Made by a program: the position numbers and the translations under genes. A model generated the notes under the pieces. It worked only from the letters and a program-made list of their open reading frames with translations, had not been told where the DNA came from and did no database searches. From NCBI GenBank assembly GCA_965215505.1, contig OZ244065.1:352001-416000 (forward strand): 64,000 bases of DNA, written 5' to 3'. The number at the start of each line of letters is the position of its first letter. Position 1 is the stretch's first letter. Below, piece by piece: positions 9,271-23,381 of the stretch. The DNA is from Capsulimonadaceae bacterium. GTDB taxonomy: Bacteria > Armatimonadota > Armatimonadia > Armatimonadales > Capsulimonadaceae.

Positions 9271-9839
9271 GCCGCCCCCGTCTGGGAGGGCTTGACGCGC
9301 AGGGGGATGCCCGCGACAAGCAGGACGACCTCGTCGGCTGCCGCCGCCGCTGCCTGGTTCGCCCGGCCCGCCACGTCCCGCCAGACGCGCCCCAGGGCCG
9401 TTCCGGGGACCATGCCCATGCCGACCTCATTAGACACGAGCAGTACGCGGGCCGGGGCCTCCTGCGCCGCCCGCAGCAGGTCGGCGACGGCGGTTTCGAC
9501 CCCGGCCTCATCCCAGACGTCCGCGTCGCAGTGGGCGGCGTCGCCCGCACGGAGCAGGTGGTTGGTCACGAAGAAGGTCAGGCAGTCAATCAGGATGACC
9601 GGTGCCTCCGACTCCCGGCGCAGGAAATCCGCCACGTCCAGAGGCTCCTCCACCGTCCGCCAGTGGGCGGGCCGGTCGGACTGATGCTTTGAAATGCGGG
9701 CGGCCATCTCGTCGTCGCCCGCCTGCGCGGTCGCGACGAACAGGACGGGACGGCCGCCGGCTTCCCGCTCGGCCATTTCCTGCGCGTGGCGGCTCTTGCC
9801 GGAGCGCGCCCCGCCTAAGATCAACGTCAATCGGCTCAT
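9267..9839 (-). CDS. cobU: bifunctional adenosylcobinamide kinase/guanylyltransferase
   Basis: LILGGARSGKS P-loop, VSNEVGMG, AGRANQ; ATG 9839 overlaps the upstream stop (ATGA). Confidence 0.95.
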   Translation of the reverse strand: MSRLTLILGGARSGKSRHAQEMAEREAGGRPVLFVATAQAGDDEMAARISKHQSDRPAHWRTVEEPLDVADFLRRESEAPVILIDCLTFFVTNHLLRAGDAAHCDADVWDEAGVETAVADLLRAAQEAPARVLLVSNEVGMGMVPGTALGRVWRDVAGRANQAAAAAADEVVLLVAGIPLRVKPSQTGAA

Positions 9840-10699
9840 CTTGCAAATCCTTCCGGGTGCAGCGCCCGCGCGACGGCCAGCAGGCCCAGCCCCAGACGCG
9901 GGCCGGGGCGGTCGGTCAGGTCGCCGGTCAGGGCGAAGACGTGACGCCGCCGGACGGCCCGAAACGATGCCGCGCCGGGGATGTCCAGCGCCTTGTGGTC
10001 CATGCCCGTGAGGATGACGTCGGGCTGGTCCCTCAGCAGCCGCTCCGGCGAGTAGGACGGGTAGCTTACGCCTGCGCGTTCGGCGACGTTGACGCCGCCG
10101 GCCAGCCGGATCAAGTCGCCGATGAAACTGCCGCCCCCCGCCGTCATCAGCGGCTTGTCCCAGACCACGACGAAGACACGCGGATGTGTCCGACCGCGCA
10201 CGGCCCGCGCGACGGCGGCCCGCGCCGCCCGCATCCGTGCCAGGGTGTCCGCCGTCGCTTGTGGCGTCCCGGCCAGCGCACCCAGGGCGGCGACATCCGC
10301 CTCGACCTGAGCGTAAGTCGCCGCCGAGGTGACGTAGACCGGCGCGCGCCACCGCGCCGCCAGCGCGTCCGCCCGCGCGGCTGGCAAGGTCTGGTCCGCC
10401 AGGATGACGAGGTCGGGCCGCAGGGCGAGTATCTTCTCCGCATTGGGCGTCACCGGCCCGCCGACGTGCGGGAGGGTCCGCGCGGCGGGCGGGAAGTCGC
10501 AGTAGACGGTGTCGCCCGCGATCCTGCTTCCGGCCCCGACCGCGTACAGTATCTCGGTCACGCTGGGTGCCAGCGAGACGATGCGCCGAGGCGGGAGCGG
10601 CAGGGAGACCAGCCGCCCAAGGTCATCCGTGACCGTCTGCGACGCGCCCGCCGGGAGTGGAAGGAGCGCGAGGCAAGCCAGAAAGAGGCAGGACCGCAT
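9836..10699 (-). CDS. btuF: exported cobalamin-binding protein (BtuF-like)
   Basis: signal peptide, VTDDLGRLV, RIVSLAPSVTEIL, RPGPRL; inside the cob operon. Confidence 0.85.
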   Translation of the reverse strand: MRSCLFLACLALLPLPAGASQTVTDDLGRLVSLPLPPRRIVSLAPSVTEILYAVGAGSRIAGDTVYCDFPPAARTLPHVGGPVTPNAEKILALRPDLVILADQTLPAARADALAARWRAPVYVTSAATYAQVEADVAALGALAGTPQATADTLARMRAARAAVARAVRGRTHPRVFVVVWDKPLMTAGGGSFIGDLIRLAGGVNVAERAGVSYPSYSPERLLRDQPDVILTGMDHKALDIPGAASFRAVRRRHVFALTGDLTDRPGPRLGLGLLAVARALHPEGFAR

Positions 10700-11541
10700 C
10701 AGGGCGTCCCCCTGCCGTTGAACAGCTCGTCCGTCGTCAGGTCGCCGTCCTCGTCAATGTCGCCCAGACCGAGCGGCGTGAACTGGCTGGCGTTGTAGCC
10801 GTTCATGTAGCCGAACGCCCCGGAGCGGTAGGTCGGGCGGATCGCCTTGACATGGCCGTCCAGCCAGAGGACGTTGCCCGTGCCGTTGTGCAGGCCGTGG
10901 AAGTTCGGAAAGCCGTCGCTCGGCGCATCCAGATACGGGTCGGCTTTGAAGGCGTTCTTCGCCGGGTCGAGCTGCCCGGCGTCGGCCATCTGCACCGTCC
11001 GACTGGGCGCTTGGATGGTCGCGAGCGAAACGGAGCGCGGCTCATAGTTGCCGCCCCCGATGTCCCTGTAGGGCGAGAGGTAGTCGGCGTTGTACCCGTA
11101 CCCGGTCAGGCCGAGGGCGGTGCTGACATTGGCGTCGAGTGACGGGCAGACCTGGATCTGCGAACTCCTCATGTACGGCTGGACCAGCCCCAGGCCCGCG
11201 CCCATGTGGTAGCCAGTGCCGTCCTGAGTCCCCCACCAGGTGACATAAGTGCCGGGAGCCGATCCATCCACGTTGTACGGGACGACGAGTTCGTCGGCGT
11301 CCTGCGAATACATCATGCCGGCCAGGCCGATCTGTTTGAGGTTGGAGGCACACGACGCCCGGCGGGCGTTCTCGCGCACTTTGGAGAAGACGGGGAACAG
11401 GATCGCCGCGAGAATCGCGATGATCGCGATGACGACGAGCAGTTCGATCAGGGTGAACGCTTGGGGAAGCGCCCGGCGGGGGGCCGGGGTGGAGACGAGG
11501 CGACGCCGTGTGAGGGACGCGCCGGGGACGTGGCGAGACAT
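10699..11541 (-). CDS. prepilin-type N-terminal cleavage / DUF1559 (H-X9-DG) protein
   Basis: [40 protein letters not shown] and [15 protein letters not shown]; start taken at ATG 11541. Confidence 0.92.
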
Positions 11542-11605
11542 GGGTGTTTCTTTCCGCCTGTCGCGCGCAGGCAGGAACAGCCGGAAGACTCCTGTCTTCC
11601 GGGCA

Positions 11606-11776
11606 CCTTCGGCTGGCATTCTGGCTGAGCGGCCCGCGTCCCGAGGGACGGAGCCGCATCACAGTTGCGGGACAGCGCCGGAATAGCCTTGGCACTGAAA
11701 CGAGTCAACGCTTCAGCGAGCAAGGCGCACCGGACTTCCCCATTTAAGCGCCGCGTTGACCGCGACGCACCGAGGG
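11606..11776 (-). promoter_or_regulatory. cobalamin (B12) riboswitch
   Basis: minus strand GGTGC..TTAAATGGGGAAGTCCGGTG..ATTCCGGCGCTGTCCCGCAACTGTGA..CAGCCAGAATGCCAGCC; upstream of the cob salvage operon; hairpin at 11581-11602 follows it. Confidence 0.9.
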
Positions 11777-11804
11777 TTGGGGCACGATGTAGTTTTGAAG
11801 TGTG

Positions 11805-11834: not shown

Positions 11835-12076
11835 GGGGAACCCACCCCGGCGCGAGCGCCGACCCGCCCGAAACGGGAGGGTGGGGTGAGAAGGTTGTTG
11901 GGGGGGTAGCGGGATGAGTGGGGGGCTAGGGGGTTAAGGGGTGTTCCGAAGGGAGGTGGCTGCCCGCGCCCCTTAACAGGACAGCCGCCCACTCATCCCG
12001 CCAAACCTCCCGATCACCCTCCCAGTCCACCTTCCCGTTTCGGGCGGGTCGGCGCTCGCGTCGGGGTGGGTTCCCC
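11835..12076. mobile_element. MITE/REP-like element with ~50-bp terminal inverted repeats
   Basis: 11835-11884 is a near-perfect reverse complement of 12027-12076; inner IR GCGGGATGAGTGGG (11909-11922) / CCCACTCATCCCGC (11988-12001). Confidence 0.7.
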
Positions 12077-13315
12077 CGCCGCCTCGCCCGCCGCCTCGCC
12101 CGCCGCCCACCCGGTACTCCAGGCCGCCTGCAAGTTGTAGCCGCCGACCGGCCCGGCGATGTCCAGCACCTCGCCGCACAGATACAAGCCTTCCACCCGG
12201 CGTGACCGCATCGTGCCCGCCTCCACCTCGTCCAGCGCGACGCCGCCCGCGACCACCTCGCCGCGCTCCAAAGGGACGTGGCGGACCGTGCCGAGCGGCC
12301 AGGCTTTCAGGGTGGAAACCAGCTTGTTCAGCGCCTTCGCGGTCAGGTACGCCCCGCGCGTCTCGGCGGGCACGTCGGCGGCGGCCAGCAGCGGCTCCAA
12401 GAGCCGTGCGGGGACGAACGGGGCGGCCAGGGCACCGACCGTCTTGCGCGGGTTGTCTTTTGCCTGCCGCCGCAGCTCGGCTTGAAGCTCCTCCCAGGTC
12501 AGGCCCGGCGCGAGGTCCGCCTCCACCGCGCTGACCGCCTCCCGCTCGGCCACCTCGCGCGAGACGCCCAGGGCGGTCGGGCCGGAGACGCCCTTGTGGG
12601 TGAACAGCAGGTCGCCCTGCCAGCGCATGAACTCCTTGCCGCCCCCGCCTGCCCGCGCCCGCAGCACGGTGTCGCGCAGGGCCACGCCCGACCACTGCGG
12701 GGCGGCGTCGGCGAGGTACAGGGGAGCCAGTGCGGCCCGCAGCGGCACGACCGTGTGCCCGAGCGACGTCAGCCACGGCCAGCCGTCCCCGGTCGTCCCG
12801 GTGGCGGGGTACGACGAGCCGCCGGTAGACACGATGACGCGCGAGGCCGGCAGCGTCTCCGCCCCGACCTGCACCGCCCGCATCCGGCCCCCTTGGGCCA
12901 CCAGCCCGGTGACGGACGCCCCGTAGCGGATGCTTACACCCGCCTCCTCGACGTGGCGCGTCAGCAATGCGACGACATCCTTGGCGTTTGCCGGCTCGAC
13001 CGGGAAGATGCGCCCGTCGGGCCGCACATAAGTCTCCATGCCCCGGTCGTGCAGGATACGCAGGAAGTCCTGGTTGGTGAACTTGTAAAACGAGGGCTTC
13101 AGGAACCGCGCCTCATTGGGCCGGAACTTCGCCCGCACGTCCTCCATCGGCCCGTCGTGGGTGAGGTTGCACTTGCCGCCGCCGGAGATGAGTATCTTCA
13201 TCCCCAGCCGGTCGTTCTTCTCCAGCAGCGTGACGCGCGCCCCGCACTCGGCGGCCCGCCGGGCGGCCAGCATCCCTGCCGCGCCGCCGCCGATGACAAT
13301 TACTTCCTTTGTCAT
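12014..13315 (-). CDS. HI0933/YhiN(BaiN) family flavoprotein
   Basis: VIGGGAAG, KILISGGGKCNLT, TGGSSYPATGTTGDG, GGYNLQAAWSTG; ATG 13315 overlaps the upstream stop. Confidence 0.92.
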   Translation of the reverse strand: MTKEVIVIGGGAAGMLAARRAAECGARVTLLEKNDRLGMKILISGGGKCNLTHDGPMEDVRAKFRPNEARFLKPSFYKFTNQDFLRILHDRGMETYVRPDGRIFPVEPANAKDVVALLTRHVEEAGVSIRYGASVTGLVAQGGRMRAVQVGAETLPASRVIVSTGGSSYPATGTTGDGWPWLTSLGHTVVPLRAALAPLYLADAAPQWSGVALRDTVLRARAGGGGKEFMRWQGDLLFTHKGVSGPTALGVSREVAEREAVSAVEADLAPGLTWEELQAELRRQAKDNPRKTVGALAAPFVPARLLEPLLAAADVPAETRGAYLTAKALNKLVSTLKAWPLGTVRHVPLERGEVVAGGVALDEVEAGTMRSRRVEGLYLCGEVLDIAGPVGGYNLQAAWSTGWAAGEAAGEAAGEPTPTRAPTRPKREGGLGG

Positions 13316-14133
13316 GGCTTCCATTTCTCGTGCGCGTACTTGTCCAGATGAATGTTCACGCCATGGAACTCTCTATCACGGTCCCCCCCAACCCCGACCT
13401 GGAAGCCGTTCACCGGCAGCGTTAGCTGGACTAGCGAGGGGTCAACATCGTTGAAATCCGACTCCCATGTCCCAACCGTCACACCGTATTTTTGGAGCGC
13501 TTGGGGTGATATGTGGGGTACCCAGCCGCGGACGTAAACCTGACCGTCATGCTTGATGAGGGTCCAACTTTCGGGGGCCCCAGGGGCGTCGGACGAGTAT
13601 GGCTGAAAGCTGCGATTATCCTCATCATAAAAGCATTGCACTGGCTGATTGTCGCCGACCTCTGAGAGCATGACAAGTTTGTTGGAAGCAGTATTGACCA
13701 GCAGGTTCGGGTCCAAGGAGATGGGCTTGGGAATGTTGTTTGGTGCGGGTGCGGCGGTGCTGACGGTTACTGGCTTGGCCGCTTGATGACCCCGCATCTG
13801 TGACAGGCTGTTTTTGCCCAGCCCAAGCCCCAGCAGGATACCTCCCAGGCCAAGCGCCAGCACAAGACGCCCGGCGAGCGGGGGCCGCCGCCGATTGGCC
13901 CTTGTTGGCTCCTGCCGGATTGCCTGCACCTCCGCCAGCACCTCTTCCGGCGTGGTATCCACACCAAGCTGCTGGACGGCCTCACCAATGAAGATCGTAC
14001 CATCTACATTCCGCAACCCGGCGTCTTTCCGCGCCTCGATCCGCGAAAGGGCCAAGGCGAGTTCTTCCGGCGTCACGCGCGCCTGCGCGGCAGGTTGCGT
14101 TTGTGTCTCTGGGTTTTCCTCGTGTTTCAGCAT
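13312..14133 (-). CDS. array paralog 7 (last in transcription): single-TM protein, unassigned family
   Basis: MLKH..RVTPEEL..RIEARK..GTIFIGEAVQQLG; TM; WTLIKHDGQVYVRGW; HLDKYAHEKW. Confidence 0.85.
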   Translation of the reverse strand: MLKHEENPETQTQPAAQARVTPEELALALSRIEARKDAGLRNVDGTIFIGEAVQQLGVDTTPEEVLAEVQAIRQEPTRANRRRPPLAGRLVLALGLGGILLGLGLGKNSLSQMRGHQAAKPVTVSTAAPAPNNIPKPISLDPNLLVNTASNKLVMLSEVGDNQPVQCFYDEDNRSFQPYSSDAPGAPESWTLIKHDGQVYVRGWVPHISPQALQKYGVTVGTWESDFNDVDPSLVQLTLPVNGFQVGVGGDRDREFHGVNIHLDKYAHEKWKP

Positions 14134-14166
14134 GATCAGACTTCTTGCATTAGCCCCAGCGCGTGT

Positions 14167-14318
14167 CCCCGGATTGAAATCCGGGTCTTTGAGAGAGCGA
14201 TTGTCCACCTTCGTGGACACAGGATCAACCACCGGGCCATTTTCCCCCACTAGGCCACATCTTCTGTCCGCGAAGGCGGACATTCGCAAGGCTAAAGCCC
14301 TGGAATTCATTCCAGGGC
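14167..14318. repeat. REP-like palindrome cluster inside the array
   Basis: CCCGGATTGAAATCCGGG, GTCCACCTTCGTGGAC, GTCCGCGAAGGCGGAC, AGCCCTGGAATTCATTCCAGGGCT. Confidence 0.7.
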
Positions 14319-14348
14319 TTCATTATACCTGATGTCTATATGGCGGCG

Positions 14349-15152
14349 TCACGGCCGCCACTTCTCGTTGGCGTGCTGGTCCAGGTGAACACCTACGGCG
14401 TGGAACCAGACCCCGTTCTTGGGCACTGCCGCCAGATCCTGGAGGGGCAACGTGACCGGAATCACCCAGTTTGGCCGGCTCCGGGCGCTCACATCCATGC
14501 CGTCCGTCTCCGGTTGGCTTTGCACCCTCACTGCGAAGCCGTTCTTTTGCGTTACGCCCGGCGTTGTGCGATAGGTCCAGCCACGGACGTACACCTGACC
14601 GTCGTGTTTGATGAGCGTCCAGGGGTTCTGCGTTGCGCTGTTCGGCGTCCATTGGGTGAACACCACCCGCCCATCCACACCCGACATGTCGCAGTGTACG
14701 GGCTGGCCGTCTTTCACTGCCGAGAGGTTGACCAACTTCCCGGAAGCGGTGCTGACGAGTAGATTGGGATCGAGCAGAACCGGCAGGACGTAGGAGCCGG
14801 CGCTCGCCTGCGCCGCCGCCTGACGCCGCATTTGCCATAGGTCGTTCCCGCCCAGGGCAGCGCCCAGGAGGATGCCGGTCAGGCCGAGCGACAGCGCGAG
14901 ACGCCTGCCGAGGGGCATCCGCCTCTTCCGGGGCACGGCCTGCCGACGGCCCGCCTGGACTTCGGCGAGGACTTCCTCCGGCGTCGCCTCCAGCCCGAGC
15001 TGCTGCACGGCCTCGCCGATGGGAATGGTGCCGTCCGCCCGACGCTGGTCGGTGTCCTGCCGGGCCTCGATCCGCGCGATGGCCGCCGCCAATTCCTCCG
15101 GCGTCACGCGGACGCGGGCGGCCGGCTCTTCGACTTGCTCCTGTTTCAGCAT
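14349..15152 (-). CDS. array paralog 6
   Basis: MLKQ..RVTPEELAAAIARIEARQ..GTIPIGEAVQQLGLEATPEEV; TM; WTLIKHDGQVYVRGW; HLDQHANEKW. Confidence 0.88.
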   Translation of the reverse strand: MLKQEQVEEPAARVRVTPEELAAAIARIEARQDTDQRRADGTIPIGEAVQQLGLEATPEEVLAEVQAGRRQAVPRKRRMPLGRRLALSLGLTGILLGAALGGNDLWQMRRQAAAQASAGSYVLPVLLDPNLLVSTASGKLVNLSAVKDGQPVHCDMSGVDGRVVFTQWTPNSATQNPWTLIKHDGQVYVRGWTYRTTPGVTQKNGFAVRVQSQPETDGMDVSARSRPNWVIPVTLPLQDLAAVPKNGVWFHAVGVHLDQHANEKWRP

Positions 15153-15176
15153 GGTCCTGTCCCTGTCTATTGCTTC

Positions 15177-16001
15177 TTACGGCTGCCACTTCTCGTAGGC
15201 GTGTTTGTCCAGATGTAGGTGGGCGAAGTAGAACACGGCGGGCGTGTCCGCCGGCCAGTGCCGGTAGGCGACCCCGTCCGCGAACGTGGTGGGCGTCAGC
15301 CGGAACGTGACGGGCGTGGGATGACTGCCCAGCCCCGGCACCGTCGGGGTGCTGTAAACGGGGATGCGTTCGGCCTGCTTCGCGGCGGCACTGGAAAACG
15401 ACGTGGGAGTCCAGCCGCGCAGGTAAAGCTCCCCGTGATACTTCACGGCCGGCCACGTCATGGTGGAAGCCTCCTGCGGGACCCGCTGCGGCTCGAAGCG
15501 GTACTGCCGACTCATGGCGGCGTAGTTGGCGGCCTCGGCGGAGCAAAAGACGGTGCGGCCTTCGGGCGTCTCGGCCAGCGTGCGGATGACCGGCGACGGG
15601 CCGGACCGGTCCTGCACGAGCAGCTTTGCCCCCAGAGAGGCGTTCGTCTCCCCGAAGAACTGGCTGTTCACGCCGTCCAGGTCAGCTGGCGCTTGGAGCC
15701 AGAACCCGCCCAGCGCGAGCAGCACCCCGCCCACGGCCAGCGCGCCGGCGGCGTGGCCGCGCCGCCCGGTCAGATGCCAGGCCGTGCGCCGTTTGGTCCG
15801 CCTGCGCGCCGCCCGGACCTCCGCCAGCAGGTCGGCCTCCGCGATGTCCAGGCCCATCTCGTTCAATAGGGGCCCGAGGGGCTGCGCGCCCTCCGCCTCG
15901 GCCTGCCGCCGCCTCTCGATGGCGGCCACGGCAACCGCGAGTTCTTCCGGCGTCACGCGGGCGGGCGCAGCCTGTTCTTCGGGTTTGTTGTGTCTCAGCA
16001 T
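15177..16001 (-). CDS. array paralog 5
   Basis: MLRH..RVTPEELAVAVAAIERR; TM; WPAVKYHGELYLRGW; HLDKHAYEKW. Confidence 0.85.
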   Translation of the reverse strand: MLRHNKPEEQAAPARVTPEELAVAVAAIERRRQAEAEGAQPLGPLLNEMGLDIAEADLLAEVRAARRRTKRRTAWHLTGRRGHAAGALAVGGVLLALGGFWLQAPADLDGVNSQFFGETNASLGAKLLVQDRSGPSPVIRTLAETPEGRTVFCSAEAANYAAMSRQYRFEPQRVPQEASTMTWPAVKYHGELYLRGWTPTSFSSAAAKQAERIPVYSTPTVPGLGSHPTPVTFRLTPTTFADGVAYRHWPADTPAVFYFAHLHLDKHAYEKWQP

Positions 16002-16054
16002 GATCGTGTCGTGTTCCTGCCGGCACCGCCGGTATGCCACTCGCCGGCGGCTTG

Positions 16055-16843
16055 CTAGTCGAAACGGTCCTCGAAAGCGTCCCACAGGTGGCCGTCGGTC
16101 TGAACGCCGGAGATCAAAAGTACGGCGCACTTCGGGCCTTCAAGCGACTCGTCACGATGGAACTCCCCGACAGGCAGCGTCACTCTCGATGTTTCAGTCA
16201 AGTCTCCCTGAAAAACAAAACCCGAGGTGGTTGCGCCAAAGTGTTCCTCGGTGTTGGCGATCGCGAAGGGCTTGCTCATCATTTCCGTCTTCGTCGCCTT
16301 GATCGTGTAGGCCTGGACATACGTCTTGCCGCCGTGCTTGATCAGGCCCCAGCGGATTCCCTGGCTAGTCGGATAAACGTGTACCTGTGAGGCGGGTTCC
16401 CCGTCAATGATCTGGTTTAGACCTTCGGTATCCACATAGAACTGCTGCCCGTTGTGTATGCCATCCAGCATGGCCGCCGGACGCAGAATGGCGGCCCTGC
16501 TCGCCTCCCTATGGATGTGAGGGCGCAAGACAAGGCCGCCCATGAGGGCAAGGAGGCCCATCCCCACGCCTGACAGCAGCGCCCGACCCCGGCGGCGCAG
16601 CGTCCAACTTTTCCCCGCCGCTGACTGTGCTGACCGGGCCGCCTCTACCTCGGCCCAAACGGCCTCGGGAGTGGCCGCCAGCCCAAGCTCGCTGACGGCC
16701 TCACCGATGCTGACGGTGCCGCCCGCATCGCCTTCCTGCTTCGCTTCCAGGCAGGCGATGGCGCTTGCCAGTTCTGCCGGAGTCACGCGCCTCTGCGCGG
16801 CAGATTGCATCGGCCCTTCCGGATCTTCGTCGTGTCTCAGCAT
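16055..16843 (-). CDS. array paralog 4
   Basis: MLRH..RVTPAELASAIACLEAKQ..GTVSIGEAVSELGL; TM; WGLIKHGGKTYVQAY; DGHLWD. Confidence 0.85.
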   Translation of the reverse strand: MLRHDEDPEGPMQSAAQRRVTPAELASAIACLEAKQEGDAGGTVSIGEAVSELGLAATPEAVWAEVEAARSAQSAAGKSWTLRRRGRALLSGVGMGLLALMGGLVLRPHIHREASRAAILRPAAMLDGIHNGQQFYVDTEGLNQIIDGEPASQVHVYPTSQGIRWGLIKHGGKTYVQAYTIKATKTEMMSKPFAIANTEEHFGATTSGFVFQGDLTETSRVTLPVGEFHRDESLEGPKCAVLLISGVQTDGHLWDAFEDRFD

Positions 16844-16847
16844 GGTG

Positions 16848-17699
16848 TCAGTGCCAGGGGGTGAGCGTGGTCAGCGGGTCGGGCTGGAAGTCGGGGAGGG
16901 TGACTTCCGAGAAGTCCTCGTTGCCACCCGACTTCTGCAAAGGCGTCTTGTCCACGCGCACGGTGACATTCGTGGTAGTCTCACCCGCCAGCTCGCCCGA
17001 GTTGTCGTCGTTGTAGACATTGAGGGCCTTGCCCCGGAGCGGCTGAAGCGAATCGGTGCTGGCGATGTAGCCGCGCAGATAGACGTGCGGGCCGACCTTC
17101 ACCATCGCCCAGCGGTTGCCGGTCGCGTTCTCGCTGACGGTGATCTGCGCCGCCGGCTTGCCCTCGGAGACCTGGACCAGCGCCGCATCGTCGGCGTAGA
17201 CCTCCCTGCCGTCGGGAATCTGGGCCAGGGGACGAAGGATGGGGGCGGGCGTCGCATGACGCCAGAAATGGGGGATGACGCCGGCCTGGACCAGCACCCA
17301 GCCGATCAGTACGGGCGTGAACAGTCCCCACCACCCCGAGCGGTTTTTGGAACGCGGGGCGGACGACCGCTGCCGCGCCGCCTCCTCCCGGCGCGCGGCC
17401 TTTCTCGCCGCCCGTGCCTGCTGGCGGGCCTGTTCCTGCCGCTCCTGCTCCTGCTGGACGGCGCTCGCCCTGGCCCGCTGCGCCTGCACCTCGGCCCAGA
17501 TCTCGTCCGAGGTCGAGTCCAGGTGCAGTTCGGACACGGCCTGGTCTACCGGGATGGTGCCCGCGAGGCGGCTGGCCTCCGCCTGTTTGCGCGCCTCGAT
17601 GGCCGCCAGAGCCTCGGAGAGTTCTTCGGGCGTGACGCGGGCCTGCGCGGCGGGCAGGGTGGGGGTTTCCGGGGTTTCTTCTGTCTGTTGTCGGAGCAT
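16848..17699 (-). CDS. array paralog 3
   Basis: MLRQ..RVTPEELSEALAAIEARK..GTIPVDQAVSELHL; Q/R-rich linker; TM; WAMVKVGPHVYLRGY. Confidence 0.85.
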   Translation of the reverse strand: MLRQQTEETPETPTLPAAQARVTPEELSEALAAIEARKQAEASRLAGTIPVDQAVSELHLDSTSDEIWAEVQAQRARASAVQQEQERQEQARQQARAARKAARREEAARQRSSAPRSKNRSGWWGLFTPVLIGWVLVQAGVIPHFWRHATPAPILRPLAQIPDGREVYADDAALVQVSEGKPAAQITVSENATGNRWAMVKVGPHVYLRGYIASTDSLQPLRGKALNVYNDDNSGELAGETTTNVTVRVDKTPLQKSGGNEDFSEVTLPDFQPDPLTTLTPWH

Positions 17700-17701
17700 G
17701 G

Positions 17702-19063
17702 TTACCACTTCTCCCAAGCGTGGTCATCGGGCTTCACATCCGATAGGACGGTCTGTTGTAGGAAATCCATGCCGCCGGGCTTCCCGAAAGAGTCGAAATC
17801 CGGCAGTCTTTCGTAGAAGCGCCCGGCCTGCCCATACTGGACGTTTTTCAGGCGCAATGAGATGGGCCTGGCGGCCCCGACCAAGCTCAGTTCCGGCGGC
17901 GCGGGTGAGTTGTACAGGTGCAAAAACGGGCCGGTCAAATCTTTTGGGCTGAGATCACCCGCGACCCAGCCGCGCAGGTACAGCTCGCCACGGTGCTTGA
18001 CGGCGAACCAGCATCTCAGGTAGGCCGGGTGGACGAGGTCAGGCCGTAAGGGTGACACATCCACAGCGTCGAGCGGAGCGCCCGTCAGCACCCCGGAAAG
18101 CTCTTCGTACCCGAGGACGAACATCTTCTCGTCCGGATACGAAGCGATAGACGTTCCACCGGCGGACTTAAACAGCAGTGGGTTCGGCCTGCCGGACAGC
18201 CAATTTCTCTTCATGACCTGCTGGGTCATCCGTGCAGGGACCACAGGCCCCTTCGTGGACATGACGTACCCCGCACGTTCCCAGGCGTGCTGATCGAGAT
18301 GGACATCCGAAACAGTGACCTTCTCGTCCATCTCTCGGAAGAAATTGGGCATATAGCTGGCTGCCTCAAGCGTGCTAAACCGCTCGTAGAAACTGTGATA
18401 CTTCAACGTGTCCAGTCGCAGAGTGACTTCGGCCGGGCGGTTTCCGTTCTCTGGAACCTGCTCATAGTCATCAATGTCCATGGTGCGTCCCGGCAAGGCG
18501 CTCCTCGTAGGCGGGGCTGGTATCCAGCCCCGCAGGTAGACGTGGCCGTCATACTTAACCAGACGCCAACCATCCATCGCGGGGGCGATGCCCTCAAGGT
18601 TCTGCATCCTTACGGTGATCTTCGACGGGTCCACGCCGTAAAGGATTTTCCGCACTTCCTCCCCTGACAGTTCGAAGGGGGAGTTGTCAGGAAAATCGGA
18701 GACGCTGTAAGTGGAGGCCGCCGCTGGATTGGACAGGCCGGTCGTCCTCGGCGGAAGGGCCTGGTGATGACGGAGGAACGTGATGAGGCTGATTGCTGAC
18801 ACGGCAAGCAGGACGCCGACAAGCTGCCAGTGTGGCCGGTGCCGGCTTGAATGAGGTGCGGGCGCTGCCCGGTCGAGAGGCAGGGAAGGATTAACCAGGA
18901 CATAAGCGGCCGTTTCCGACGGTGCAGCCTCGGAGTTCAGCACTAGGGCGGCTTGCGCCTCGTGGACTTGGGTGGTCACGAGGGCGCGCGTCGGCTCCTC
19001 GGGTGTGACCGGGTGCTGGGGGGCGGCTTCTGGTTCCGACAGATGCTCCTCGTGAAGATGCAT
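17702..19063 (-). CDS. array paralog 2 with duplicated C-terminal domain
   Basis: degenerate VTPEE N-terminus; TM; WRLVKYDGHVYLRGW..HLDQHAWER then WFAVKHRGELYLRGW..PDDHAWEKW. Confidence 0.85.
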   Translation of the reverse strand: MHLHEEHLSEPEAAPQHPVTPEEPTRALVTTQVHEAQAALVLNSEAAPSETAAYVLVNPSLPLDRAAPAPHSSRHRPHWQLVGVLLAVSAISLITFLRHHQALPPRTTGLSNPAAASTYSVSDFPDNSPFELSGEEVRKILYGVDPSKITVRMQNLEGIAPAMDGWRLVKYDGHVYLRGWIPAPPTRSALPGRTMDIDDYEQVPENGNRPAEVTLRLDTLKYHSFYERFSTLEAASYMPNFFREMDEKVTVSDVHLDQHAWERAGYVMSTKGPVVPARMTQQVMKRNWLSGRPNPLLFKSAGGTSIASYPDEKMFVLGYEELSGVLTGAPLDAVDVSPLRPDLVHPAYLRCWFAVKHRGELYLRGWVAGDLSPKDLTGPFLHLYNSPAPPELSLVGAARPISLRLKNVQYGQAGRFYERLPDFDSFGKPGGMDFLQQTVLSDVKPDDHAWEKW

Positions 19064-19129
19064 ACCGACATTATAGCAAGGCTGGAAACGGGAAGCAAGG
19101 GGAGCGGTGAAATAACCAGCCGGAGCCGA

Positions 19130-19936
19130 TCACCACTTCTCTTTGAGGTGCCCGTCGGGGACGATGTGGTCGGCGTTGATCAGGGTGTCATTCGACAAAC
19201 TTGGCGGTAGCCGGAAGCCGCTGAGGGGCAGCGTGACGGGGACGGGGTGCAGGCCGGTCGGGACGAAGCTCACGGAGGGATGGACGGTCACGATGGTTGA
19301 CCGCAGAGCGGCGTCGGACATGTCGCCGATCCAGCCGCGCAGGTAGACCCGCCCGTGGTGTTTGATGAGGTTCCAGTGGGCGACGCCAGGAGCAAAATCG
19401 GTCATCTTCACACCTTCGTCCACGGCAGCCAGATCGCAGAGGACAGGCTGACCATCCGGCACCTCCGAGAGAAGCACCATCTTGCCGTCACGCACACGGA
19501 CCAGGAGGTTATTGGGGAGGGCGAGGGGCGCGGCCTGCGGCGCGGCGGGGGCCGTGATGACGGCGACGGCGGGCTTGGCTGGTTCGTCCATGCGGAGGGA
19601 GGCCAGCAGCGCGCCGCCGGACAGCACGAGGCTGAGGGCGACGGCGATGCTAATCCTGAGCCTGTTGGAGAGTGCCTGGCGAGTCCCAGCCTTGCCCTCC
19701 TGCGGGAGCGCCCGACCTGCCTCGATCTCGCGCAGGAGTTCGTCGGGCGTGACGTTCAGGCCGAGTTCCTGCACGGCATCGCCGAGCGGGATGGTGCCGT
19801 CCAGGCCGCCCTGACGCGCTTCCAGGCGGGCCAGGGCGGCGGCAAGCTCCTGGGGGGTGACGCGGACCTGGGCGGCGGGGGTGGTCCTTGCCTCGGGGGT
19901 GGTGCTTGTCTCCGGGGCGTCGTCGTGTCGCAGCAT
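19130..19936 (-). CDS. array paralog 1
   Basis: MLRH..RVTPQELAAALARLEARQ..GTIPLGDAVQELGL; TM; WNLIKHHGRVYLRGW; DGHLKEKW. Confidence 0.88.
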   Translation of the reverse strand: MLRHDDAPETSTTPEARTTPAAQVRVTPQELAAALARLEARQGGLDGTIPLGDAVQELGLNVTPDELLREIEAGRALPQEGKAGTRQALSNRLRISIAVALSLVLSGGALLASLRMDEPAKPAVAVITAPAAPQAAPLALPNNLLVRVRDGKMVLLSEVPDGQPVLCDLAAVDEGVKMTDFAPGVAHWNLIKHHGRVYLRGWIGDMSDAALRSTIVTVHPSVSFVPTGLHPVPVTLPLSGFRLPPSLSNDTLINADHIVPDGHLKEKW

Positions 19937-19957: not shown

Positions 19958-21307
19958 TCAGGCGCTTTCCGGCACCGGCTCCGGCTCGTGGCGGGTGAAC
20001 AGCAGGCGGCGGATGCGGCGGCCCGTCACCTCGGCGACCGAGACGTCGAAGCCGTCCAGCCGGGCGGAGGCCCCGTGGCGCGGCGGCAGGCGCAGGGCGT
20101 GGAGGGCGTAGCCGCCGATGGTGTCGTAGTCGTCGGGGTTACTGATCGGCATGCCGAGTGTTTCCGAAACCTCGTCAAGCGCGACCGTCCCGGCCACCGA
20201 GTAGGACCGGCCGGTCTCGTCGAGCGGCACGAGGGGCGGGGGCTGGTCGTGTTCGTCCTGGATCTCGCCGATCAGCTCCTCGATGATGTCTTCCAGAGTC
20301 ACCAGACCCGCCGTGCCGCCGTACTCGTCCACGACGACGGCCTGGTGGGTGTGGCTCTTCTGAAGCTCTTTGAGGAGTTCATCAATCGGCTTGGTTTCGG
20401 GGATGCCGATGATGTCGCGCTTGATAGCGCGGATGTCGGCGTCGGTTTTATTGGCGATTGCCAGCAGGTCCTTGATGTGGATCATGCCGATGACGTGGTC
20501 CCGGTCGCCCTCGCAGAGCGGGTAGCGGGTGAAGCCGCTTTCCACCGAAACCTCGACGTTCCGGGCCAAGCTCCAGGTGGTGGAGAGGTAGACCATGTCC
20601 ACGCGCGGCACCATGATCTCCTTCGCCTGGGTGTGGGCGAAGTCGAAGACGTTCTCCGCGATCTCGATCTCGGACGGCCGCAGCTCGCCCTGCTGGTGGG
20701 AGTGGGCCATGATGGCGAGAATCTCGTCCTCCGAGTGCGCCTGCTCGTGGCCGTCGCCGGGCTGGATGTGCAGGGGCCGGGCGATGGCTTTGGCCGCGCT
20801 TTCCAGGATGAGGATGAGGGGGTAGCCGAGCAGGAGGAACAGGCGCATGGGCCGGGAGACGGCCAGGGCGGTCCGCTCGGTGTGGGCGATGACCCACCAC
20901 TTGGGCAGCAATTCGCCGAAGATGATGTGGAAGAAGGTGATCAGCACGAAGCCGAGGCCGATGGCGATGACGTGGGCCGAGGCGGAGCCGTGCGCGATGC
21001 CCAGGGTGTCGAACAGGCCGCGCAGGAGGCGGGCGACGGCCGGCTCGCCGACCGCGCCCAGGGCGAGCGAGGCCAGGGTGACGCCGAGCTGCGTGGCCGA
21101 AAGGTAGGTGTCCAGCCGCGTCAGGAGGTCCTGCACGGCGCGCGCGGGCACGTTCCCCTCGCCGACAAGCTCGGCGATGCGCGTCTGGCGGATGCGGATC
21201 ATCGCGAACTCGGCGGCGACGAAGAAGGCGTTGAGCGCGACCAGCAGCAGGGTCAAGCCGAGCATGAGGTAGGCCTGGGACTGATTTGATTGTATGTGGG
21301 GGTCCAT
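19958..21307 (-). CDS. hemolysin-family CNNM/CBS/CorC protein (probable Mg/Co efflux)
   Basis: [56 protein letters not shown]. Confidence 0.92.
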
Positions 21308-21470
21308 AGGGTCGCCCGCATCCGCGCTGCGGGCCGCGCTCCCGCCGTACTCTTCAGGAGAGGCTGGCGGAAAGAAATCTTCCTTTCGATATCGCGGTCA
21401 TTGTACCCGGAATCGCAATGGGTTAGGAACAGAAATTCGGAACGAATGTCGTGTGGCGGCTTGCATTCAG

Positions 21471-21691
21471 ACGAGTGATTGAAATCACTCGCTGCGCGCC
21501 GGACCTGTCCAGGGGACAAGGGCGTAATTCTAAGAGGCGGCGTGATTGACACCGCCTGCCGCAGCGTGTTATCTTCAGCGTGTTATCTTCTGTCCCCTGG
21601 ACAGGTCCGGCGCGCAGCGAGTGAATTCATTCACTCGTCCATATGCTCGGCTTGTCCATATGCTCGGCTTGTCCATATGCTCGGCTCGTCC
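21471..21691. repeat. REP family A inverted pair plus 17-bp tandem repeat
   Basis: GACGAGTGATTGAAATCACTCGCTGCGCGCCGGACCTGTCCAGGGGACA and its inverse at ~21591-21639; GTCCATATGCTCGGCTT x3 at 21637-21687. Confidence 0.85.
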
Positions 21692-21747
21692 GTAGGCCCG
21701 GCATGATGGCCCTCGGTCCGAATGCCGCAGCCTCCGCATCCCATCAA

Positions 21748-22749
21748 TCACGAACGGATTTTTAGCGCCTTCCGCACGATCCGTAGGGTCTCGTCGGCCG
21801 CCTCCCTGGCCTGGTCCGCGCCCGCCCGCAGGACGCCGTTTACATAGATAGGATCGGCTTCGAGGGCGGCGCGGCGAGCGCGGAGCGGGGCGAGGTCGGC
21901 GTTGATGATCTCGGCCAGTTCCTTCTTGGACTGCCCGCAGCCACGCAATCCGGCCCGGCACTCGCCCCACTGCGTCTGATAGTTCTCGGGGTCGTAGACG
22001 CGCCGGAGCTTGCAGGCGACGCAGCCCTCGGGAACTCCGGCGTCTGTGATGTGTATTTTGGTGGGCGTCGTGAAGGCCGAGTTGAGTTTCTTGGCCGTCT
22101 GCTTGGGCGTGTCCGCGAGGTAGACGGCGTTGTCATACGACTTGCTCATCTTGCGCCCGTCCATGCCCGGAAGCTCGCCGTTGAACTCGTTGATGACCGG
22201 GTCGGGTTCGGGGAACACGTCCGCGCCGACGATGCGGTTGAAGCGGCGGGCGATCTCGCGCGAGATCTCGATGTGCGCGGCCTGGTCCTTGCCGACCGGC
22301 ACGGCGTGGGCGCGGTAGAGGACGATGTCGGCGGTCTGGAGGACGGGGTAGCCGAGCAGTCCGTAGCTGACCTGGGTGTCGTTGTCTTTAACCAGGTCGC
22401 GCTTCACCTTGTAGGTGGGGATGCGCTCCAGCCAGCCGACCGGCGTCACCATGGACAGCAGCAGGTGAAGCTCGGCGTGTTCGGGGACGTCAGACTGCCG
22501 GAAGATGGCGCACTTGTCCGGGTCCAGGCCGCCCGCAAGGTAGTCCATTGCCGTCTGCCGCGAGGCCGCCGCGAGGTCATAGTCGCCGTCGGCCACGGTC
22601 GTCAGGGCGTGCCAGTCGGCGATCATGCAGAACATCTCGAAGTCATCCTGCCGCTGCACCCAGGGCCGCAAGGCCCCCTCCAGATTGCCCAGGTGTAGGC
22701 GACCGCCGCCGGTCGGCTGCATCCCCGAAAGTAGCCGTGGTTTTGTCAT
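21748..22749 (-). CDS. trpS: tryptophan--tRNA ligase
   Basis: SGMQPTG, HLGN, YPVLQTADI, VPVGKDQ, KMSKS. Confidence 0.96.
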   Translation of the reverse strand: MTKPRLLSGMQPTGGGRLHLGNLEGALRPWVQRQDDFEMFCMIADWHALTTVADGDYDLAAASRQTAMDYLAGGLDPDKCAIFRQSDVPEHAELHLLLSMVTPVGWLERIPTYKVKRDLVKDNDTQVSYGLLGYPVLQTADIVLYRAHAVPVGKDQAAHIEISREIARRFNRIVGADVFPEPDPVINEFNGELPGMDGRKMSKSYDNAVYLADTPKQTAKKLNSAFTTPTKIHITDAGVPEGCVACKLRRVYDPENYQTQWGECRAGLRGCGQSKKELAEIINADLAPLRARRAALEADPIYVNGVLRAGADQAREAADETLRIVRKALKIRS

Positions 22750-23381
22750 GCGTTCCCCGTGAGAAGGCCGTAAAAGAAGGTGATGGGCGGCCCGATGATG
22801 AGAAAGGCGGTGCCCGTGAAGGCCAGCGCGAAGAAGAGCAGCAGGCCAAAGGTCGCCATGAACTTGTCGTAGGCCATGGCCTGCGGCAGCGGCAGCAGCG
22901 CGGACAGCACCTTGGAGCCGTCCAGCGGCGGGATCGGGATCAGGTTGAAGAAGGTCAGGGCGAGGTTGATCCAGATGGCCGTCGTGAGAATGTGGCCGGC
23001 CGAGGTGTCCTGGGCGAACCAGTGCCGCCAGTCGTTCAGGCGCACGATGGCCGTGAAGAACAGGGCCTGCAAGACGTTGGAAAGCGGCCCGGCGGCGGCG
23101 ATCAGCAGGGGGTCCCAGCGGGGGCGGCGCAGGTTGCCGGGGTTGTACTGGACGGGCTTGCCCCAGCCGATGCCGAAGCCGGTGTAGGTCGAGATCGCCA
23201 TCATCAGGGTCCCCATCGGGTCCAGGTGGTCGGCGGGGTTGACCGAGATGCGGCCCTGGGCGCGCGGCGTGTTGTCGCCCAGCCGGTCGGCGGCGAGGGC
23301 GTGGGCGAACTCGTGGATGGTGACCGCGATGACCAGCACCACCATGGTCTGGAGCCAGTGGATGACGACCAGTTGGTCCAT
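22746..23381 (-). CDS. site-2 protease (M50 family)
   Basis: HEFAH, AAAGPLSN, FNLIPIPPLDGSK. Confidence 0.93.
   Translation of the reverse strand: MDQLVVIHWLQTMVVLVIAVTIHEFAHALAADRLGDNTPRAQGRISVNPADHLDPMGTLMMAISTYTGFGIGWGKPVQYNPGNLRRPRWDPLLIAAAGPLSNVLQALFFTAIVRLNDWRHWFAQDTSAGHILTTAIWINLALTFFNLIPIPPLDGSKVLSALLPLPQAMAYDKFMATFGLLLFFALAFTGTAFLIIGPPITFFYGLLTGNA

Follow-up and report, generated by a model that had tools for sequence, protein, structure and literature searches.

Gene content of the array

The stretch of DNA analysed here, 64,000 nucleotides (nt) from a Capsulimonadaceae bacterium (contig OZ244065.1; hereafter the window), holds at positions 13312–19936 seven co-oriented open reading frames (ORFs) on the minus strand, g1–g7, all of them paralogs of one family of predicted membrane proteins. 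A profile made from the seven genes matches each of them with E-values of 1e-76 to 1e-112, with a second ectodomain match in g6, bearing out the first-pass annotation, which had described seven co-oriented paralogs with one shared architecture. Pairwise identities of the other paralogs to g1 range from 27 to 52%. Following transcription from the stop of the upstream CNNM gene, the intergenic gaps are 21 nt to g7 and then 66, 2, 4, 53, 24 and 215 nt, and the stop of g1 overlaps the start of the downstream yhiN-like gene by 13 nt. Table 1 lists the genes together with their nearest relatives in other loci, which are referred to throughout by L numbers.

Six of the seven proteins begin with ML(K/R)(H/Q), as had been annotated; g6 begins with MHLH. 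The longest ORFs of g1, g3 and g5 extend further upstream (332, 317 and 289 amino acids (aa), respectively), but their starts were set at the ML because the family alignment supports it. The motifs described in the first-pass annotation are present with two qualifications: g5 lacks DxHAxEKW, which is degenerate in g4 and g7, and g6 carries two ectodomains. The g5 protein further differs in having a long charged linker before its transmembrane (TM) segment and a VYNDDNSGEL motif. At the DNA level, the W..YLRGW hairpin appears as a 45-nt repeat in seven copies, 64–89% identical to the reference copy.

With regard to expression signals, none of the seven starts is preceded by an obvious Shine–Dalgarno-like sequence. 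Upstream of g6, a TATAAT hexamer (within 19064–19085, minus strand) ends 7 nt from the ATG, and g6 may therefore be transcribed from a promoter of its own into a leaderless mRNA. A promoter and terminator scan found terminator-like sites in the window at the level of shuffled sequence (7 versus 7.1).

Table 1. Genes of the array and its boundaries, in window coordinates
Feature	Position	Strand	Description
Downstream flank	12014–13324	-	HI0933/yhiN-like flavoprotein gene; fixed array boundary
g1	13312–14133	-	Type B, 273 aa from MLKH; ORF reaches 14310; sister to L014_3of3 in tree
g2	14349–15152	-	Type B, 267 aa; reference copy
g2, ectodomain	14352–14801	-
g2, TM segment	14844–14900	-
g2, N-domain	~14937–15152	-
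g3	15177–16001	-	Type B, 274 aa from MLRH; tree group L018_2, L019_2, L021_2
g4	16055–16843	-	Type B, 262 aa; C-terminal motif degenerate; tree group L030_5, L023_2, L033_2
g5	16848–17699	-	Sole type-A paralog in window, 283 aa; ortholog L013_4of5
g6	17702–19063	-	453 aa; two ectodomain copies; divergent N-domain; MHLH start
g7	19130–19936	-	Type B, 268 aa; tree group L014_2, L013_1
Upstream flank	19958–21307	-	CNNM/CorC-type transporter gene (CNNM + CBS + CorC_HlyC); fixed array boundary

Domain architecture and predicted fold

Each protein consists of a conserved, acidic, three-helix N-domain of ~70 aa (net charge -2 to -8 in the seven proteins), a basic patch, one TM helix and an all-beta ectodomain of ~140 aa. 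The family form of the N-domain start is ML(K/R)H(E/D). The TM segment is evident as a single hydrophobic 19-mer per protein (two ectodomains in g6 notwithstanding), with Kyte–Doolittle values of 1.55–2.10; these helices are rich in glycine and the linker that follows them is variable. Lysine and arginine number 3–7 in the 15 residues preceding the 19-mer and 0–4 in those following it. Because of this bias toward the N-terminal side, the positive-inside rule predicts a type-II single-pass topology in which the N-domain would be cytoplasmic and the C-terminal domain outside.

AlphaFold2 (AF2) modeling of the full-length protein, using an alignment of 113 rows, places the N-domain helices at residues 18–40, 45–52 and 58–72, the TM segment within a long helix (81–116), and about 11 strands with a predicted local distance difference test score (pLDDT) >90. 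The ectodomain modeled alone has a pLDDT of 86 and a predicted template-modeling score (pTM) of 0.80. Column entropy is 1.59 bits in the N-domain, 2.99 in the TM segment and linker and 2.47 in the ectodomain, in agreement with the annotated pattern of a constant cytoplasmic module and a diversified extracytoplasmic one. What conservation there is in the ectodomain clusters in the W-x-L-I-K-H-x-G-x-x-Y-x-R-G hairpin, in VTLP and in the C-terminal D..E.W, and six polar residues are conserved across the family (K182, H183, Y188, R190, D258 and E263). Ectodomains occur in one to three copies per protein; relatives with two or three copies are 500–560 aa long.

Searches for relatives and distribution

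Neither domain resembles a named family in the libraries searched. For g1–g7, a Pfam scan (E<=1) gave no family at its cut-off (best E-value 0.03), NCBIfam and PHROGs gave no significant match, and PADLOC-DB 2.0 returned 0 defence-protein families at E<=1. A 113-sequence profile searched against all PDB chain sequences reached an E-value of 0.28 at best, and the ESM Atlas gave no usable match for the whole protein or the N-domain. The AF2 ectodomain model has no structural neighbor in the PDB at E<=1e-3 by Foldseek and none in a BFVD fold search. Pfam was likewise without a match for 33 relatives of odd architecture. A search for the N-domain in proteins of 469–2000 aa found none, although this is a weak test since family members of 500–560 aa exist. 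We found no paper describing the family, judged by titles and abstracts. These results agree with the first-pass annotation, in which neither domain was recognised. The proteins thus appear, by sequence comparison, to form an undescribed family, and the ectodomain is a candidate for a new fold, if the model is right.

The family is rare. Matching cluster representatives number 441 of 1.84 billion at E<=1e-3 and 118 at E<=1e-30, and a collection of 5.8 billion proteins holds 133 members, all named ‘hypothetical protein’ and none with a precomputed Pfam domain. The titles of public contigs encoding relatives name Armatimonadota, Armatimonadales, Capsulimonadaceae or Chthonomonadaceae. Across the phylum, 24/301 sampled genomes have a match at E<=1e-5; by taxonomic family (our f numbers) these fall in f1 (13/18), f2 (3/14), f8 (5/17), f7 (1/7) and f11 (1/31), with none in the other families sampled. 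Within the genus of the window, 22 of 23 other genomes carry the family. Its range, so far as these 301 genomes indicate, appears to be restricted to part of the Armatimonadota.

The N-domain also occurs outside the array. An eighth gene of the same genome (G000:C1:4631939-4632730; L028:7940-8734, plus strand), located 37 nt upstream of typA/bipA, joins the N-domain and TM helix to DUF3060 (PF11259, E-value 9e-7), and the relative P0263 has the same combination. Most genomes of the genus have one match away from the array that is to the N-domain only. Since the N-domain can be joined to a different outer domain, it would seem to be a reusable cytoplasmic module.

Synteny, copy number and phylogeny

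The order trpS–CNNM–array–yhiN-like is found in 19 Capsulimonadaceae loci from two genera, the window included (one of these, L018, is counted although its contig ends just inside yhiN). The flanking genes in these loci are 64–93% identical to those of the window. The number of family genes between them is not fixed, which answers a question that the first-pass annotation had raised about array content at the CNNM–yhiN locus: one locus has 1 gene, 11 have 2 (one with a split first gene), 3 have 3 (one with a split gene), 1 has 4 and 2 have 5, and only the window has 7, the largest array found.

We constructed a maximum-likelihood tree from 56 full-length members, after dropping 10 fragments or N-domain-only rows. 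The tree separates two clades. Type A comprises 17 rows, one per locus, on shorter branches, and includes g5; type B comprises 27 rows (support 96/96) and at least six sub-lineages. A locus usually consists of one conserved A gene and one B gene, and exactly one intact A gene is present in 17/19 loci, beside 1–5 B genes. L017, a complete genome, has a B gene without an A gene. The remaining gene of the window, g6, lies on a long branch with a relative of two-domain size.

The B genes of the window belong to four different sub-lineages, represented by g7, g4, g3 and the g1/g2 pair. Their closest relatives are in other species, not among their neighbors in the array; only g1 and g2 share a sub-clade. 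The array therefore consists of old lineages retained together rather than the product of a recent wave of duplications within the genome, an explanation that the tree rules out. The proposal in the first-pass annotation that the array was built by duplication accordingly fails in its recent, local form for all but g1/g2, and we replace it with the retention and exchange of old cassettes.

In two other loci (L025:8983-9843 and L032:10940-11859), the N- and C-terminal parts of a family gene lie in separate open frames. These are probably frameshifted pseudogenes, and copies can therefore decay. For the seven genes of the window, decay is ruled out by their open frames and by ratios of nonsynonymous to synonymous substitution (dN/dS, or ω) below 1.

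Selection and exchange of the B ectodomain

Rates were estimated from Nei–Gojobori counts. The flanking genes of the window compared with those of L013 and L014 have a dS of 0.41–0.62 and an ω of 0.11–0.17. Clear orthologs within the array are constrained in both domains, with an ω of 0.18–0.28 for g5/L013_4 and 0.25–0.35 for g7/L013_1 and g7/L014_2, and are under purifying selection gene-wide. Values near 1 are limited to two pairs of distantly related genes, g5 with g3 (1.14) and g5 with L014_1, a basal type-A gene (0.95). For g1 and g2, the ectodomain dS relative to the nearest L013 gene is 1.7–2.2. This is far in excess of the flank values and would be expected if the ectodomains predate the divergence of the species. 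The N-domain dS among the window paralogs is 0.70–2.46, so the conservation of this domain reflects purifying selection; in view of the same values, recent gene conversion within the window is the poorer explanation, although conversion is seen in other strains (below). The gene-wide dN/dS comparison, coarser than the per-site one suggested in the first-pass annotation, thus gave a divided answer: substitution rates between orthologs indicate constraint (ω of 0.18–0.35), and diversification is present as turnover of alleles and cassettes, not as dN/dS above 1.

The scale of this turnover is evident from nine loci with two genes each. Over their 36 pairs, CNNM is 83–97% and TrpS 84–96% identical, whereas the A proteins are 50–82% and the B proteins 36–73% identical. 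Two pairs with flanks 96–97% identical (L016/L023 and L015/L023) localise the difference. Their B N-domains are 81–90% identical with a dS of 0.46–0.48, whereas the B ectodomains are only 22–23% identical, with a dN of ~1.0 and a dS of 2.18 or saturated; in L016/L023, the B gene passes from 81% identity (dS 0.46) in the N-domain to 23% (dN 1.04) in the ectodomain. In a sliding comparison of the DNA of these two loci, identity is 0.81–0.91 in CNNM and 0.74–0.88 over most of A. Within B it is 0.87 in the N-domain core, falls to 0.35–0.45 where the N-domain ends and stays at that level as far as the stop codon; it returns to 0.88–0.92 from the first yhiN window onward. The TM helix, linker and ectodomain of B thus behave as an exchangeable cassette behind a constant N-domain.

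Events among strains can be seen in contigs from four public runs with near-identical copies of the window’s array; the locus as such occurs in 19 sequencing runs from 9 studies. In three of the four runs (X4, X5 and X9, from three studies), position 17722 is joined to 19130 with 1,992 other letters between them, and the g6 slot (17723–19129) is thus filled by a different sequence. In two of the four (X5 and X7), a copy of the N-domain region of g4 (16635–16808) plus 172 other letters takes the place of the 5′ part of g1 (13731–14111). These are metagenome contigs, in which assembly chimeras of paralogs are possible, but the sides of the joints extend for 174–255 letters and the joints recur across studies. 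All four strains also differ from the window by a 6-nt insertion (two codons) at 17240, just past the g5 TM segment.

Other features near the array

A small gene of the M50 (site-2-protease) family lies two genes upstream of the array (22749–23381, minus strand) and overlaps the trpS start. It is present between a decarboxylase gene and trpS only in the window, L017, L034 and L013 (the last cut by the contig end). As it occurs in only some of the syntenic loci, it is not consistently linked to the array, and we set aside a connection with site-2 proteolysis.

The spacer between CNNM and trpS (21463–21701) contains an inverted repeat with 56-nt arms that are 91% complementary and 72 nt apart, followed by three direct repeats spaced by 17 nt. 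Contig depth over 21386–21746 is far above that of neighboring bins in all four runs, with many joints. The repeat is probably a multi-copy element resembling a miniature inverted-repeat transposable element (MITE).

Beyond the yhiN-like gene, a cobalamin riboswitch (11594–11789, minus strand; 46 bits against a gathering score of 31.5) precedes a DUF1559/N_methyl pilin-like gene (10702–11619) and a Peripla_BP_2 gene (9839–10699).

DISCUSSION

Comparison with known systems

Several known systems share one or more features with the array, but none of those named below is a match for the family, because the defining features that we looked for are missing. Bitopic anti-sigma factors such as those of the RsgI type combine a constant cytoplasmic N-domain, a TM helix and a variable outer sensor, with several paralogs per genome, and the array proteins are similar in their predicted type-II topology, small conserved helical N-domain, diversified outer domains and multiple paralogs. 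Unlike anti-sigma factors of the RsgI, zf-HC2, RskA or FecR types, however, g1–g7 have no anti-sigma match in Pfam or NCBIfam. The 21 neighboring ORFs scanned (772–30089) contain no Sigma70-type Pfam domain, the same flanks recur in the 19 loci, and the genes are arranged in tandem rather than each being paired with a sigma gene.

The comQXP and agr loci define specificity groups (‘pherotypes’). Like them, the array has a hypervariable part between conserved flanks, a conserved cytoplasmic part and alleles far older than the species split. It differs in having no histidine kinase (HisKA and HATPase_c are absent from g1–g7), peptide precursor or processing gene, and in keeping several alleles in tandem in one genome. 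CdiA-CT, Rhs and LXG proteins are polymorphic in their C-terminal domains and have orphan cassette arrays; the constant N-terminal part, exchangeable C-terminal cassette, sharp recombination boundaries and tandem variants of the array are reminiscent of these systems. The array proteins, in contrast, are small and membrane-anchored, and every one has an N-domain of its own. Pfam, NCBIfam and PADLOC detect no toxin or secretion domain, and no small immunity ORF follows each gene (the gaps are 2–66 nt, with one of 215 nt).

Sets of type IV pilins and pseudopilins also consist of paralogs with a conserved N-terminal module and a variable, beta-rich C-terminal domain, as do the array proteins. The N_methyl motif is nevertheless absent from g1–g7, although the neighboring pilin-like gene at 10702–11619 has it, and a folded cytoplasmic domain of ~70 aa is predicted to precede the TM helix in the array proteins. 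The remaining comparison is with DUF3060 proteins, to which the eighth gene and P0263 connect the family through a common N-domain and TM helix; g1–g7 themselves lack DUF3060, and we know of no function for that domain.

A proposed repertoire of recognition modules

We consider it most likely, with a probability of roughly 0.4, that the array encodes a polymorphic repertoire for recognition outside the cytoplasm, mounted on a single shared dock inside it. The ectodomains would constitute a polymorphic set of recognition or binding modules, and the same N-domain would tether all of them to one common cytoplasmic partner, so that different ectodomains might feed, or be held by, the same inner component. 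The genome of the window has kept one A gene, five B genes from four sub-lineages and one two-ectodomain form. We favor this proposal because of the constrained and reused N-terminal module, the sharp-edged exchange of cassettes, the tandem retention of old alleles, the single invariant A gene and the intact reading frames under purifying selection; the binding function, the shared partner and any signaling are what we infer from these features.

A more specific version of the same idea is also conceivable, though we would put little weight on it. Here the array would be a variable-receptor locus in which an invariant A chain is combined with interchangeable B chains of a previously unseen beta fold. 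Cassettes would be shuffled among strains by recombination at the N-domain, providing strain-specific recognition (of self and non-self, a signal or a competitor) that is reported via one new docking domain.

A number of observations weigh against a recognition repertoire. The proteins have no recognisable output, enzymatic or ligand-binding domain, and no gene recurs next to family members across distinct contexts in 21 loci of distant relatives, so that no partner is identified from gene neighborhoods. The 19 listed runs with the locus, from 9 studies, include no RNA run. Gene-wide ω is below 1, a value that gives no sign of classical diversifying selection. The six conserved polar residues of the ectodomain might point to a single ligand shared by all instead of many. 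If an outer membrane is present, the ectodomains would be periplasmic, which would limit the targets that they could recognise. Finally, both the fold and the topology are predictions.

Alternative explanations

An unlikely alternative is that the repertoire is protective: anchored ectodomains would neutralise periplasm-acting toxins of competitors or block phage entry, the array would accumulate specificities and the N-domain would serve only to anchor or oligomerise the proteins. The sharp-edged replacement of the outer part, its recurrence at the level of strains, the range of copy number (1–7) and the presence of several old lineages side by side are all consistent with this proposal, and immunity-gene arrays and exclusion proteins show such patterns of replacement and copy number. 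None of the 19 syntenic loci, however, has a toxin, secretion-system, prophage or mobile-element gene, and PADLOC and PHROGs give no match. A strongly conserved cytoplasmic domain of 70 aa is unexpected for a simple immunity protein, and protection leaves the single conserved A gene unexplained.

A further alternative is that the proteins form a hetero-oligomeric envelope complex, in which an invariant A subunit pairs with alternative B subunits as a scaffold, for example for a capsule, an S-layer or cell–cell contact, and variation reflects co-evolution with surfaces or partners. The one intact A gene beside 1–5 B genes in 17/19 loci fits such a complex, as do the Gly-rich TM helices and the fusion of two or three ectodomains in g6 and in relatives of 500–560 aa, which hints at ectodomains acting side by side. 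Against it, the complete genome L017 has B without A, and the window shows no linked genes for a capsule or S-layer. Contact between A and B is hypothetical; a complex prediction for the g5 (A) and g4 (B) ectodomains scored 0.00, but was run without controls and carries no weight either way. We regard an envelope complex as slightly less probable than a protective function.

A link to proteostasis, in which the N-domain docks with the Hsp70 system or a regulator and so couples the heat-shock response to envelope conditions, seems improbable. It is suggested by the placement of family members inside chaperone clusters in two other families of the phylum. In two f2 genomes a family gene lies between hrcA and grpE (L035:6835-7821 and L052:7285-8013), and in three f8 loci the order is family gene–rpoZ-like–Hsp70–dnaJ–prmA (L040:6831-7916, L041:6843-7781 and L043:7457-8305). 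This neighborhood is a lead to a possible partner. In the genome of the window, though, all eight N-domain genes are separated by megabases (Mb) from the rpoZ–Hsp70–dnaJ, grpE and hrcA genes, the neighbors of other distant members are unrelated, both arrangements may descend from one ancestral placement and the Pfam scan detected no J-domain or GrpE-like features. A search for a CIRCE-type (controlling inverted repeat of chaperone expression) operator found 0 matches in the window and also 0 in L035, which carries hrcA; this result is uninformative.

It is very improbable that the proteins are accessory or regulatory subunits of the adjoining CNNM/CorC-type divalent-cation transporter: the array does start 21 nt after the CNNM stop and overlap the yhiN start, and the order CNNM–array–yhiN holds in 19/19 loci of two genera, but these loci are close kin and hence do not count as independent, CNNM does not adjoin the members from other families of the phylum, and hypervariability and changes in copy number are unexpected for the subunit of a transporter that is 81–93% conserved.

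Implications

What is new here is a protein family, a candidate fold and the behavior of a locus. The locus acts like the recognition or specificity loci of better-studied bacteria: constant inside, exchangeable outside, with old alleles in tandem. Bacteria of this group live in soil and on plant surfaces; to our knowledge, very few representatives of the phylum are in culture and its molecular biology is almost untouched. Swapping cassettes experimentally is made easy by their sharply defined boundaries. If the array is indeed a recognition repertoire, it would offer a first route to studying how these bacteria distinguish between strains, competitors or signals.

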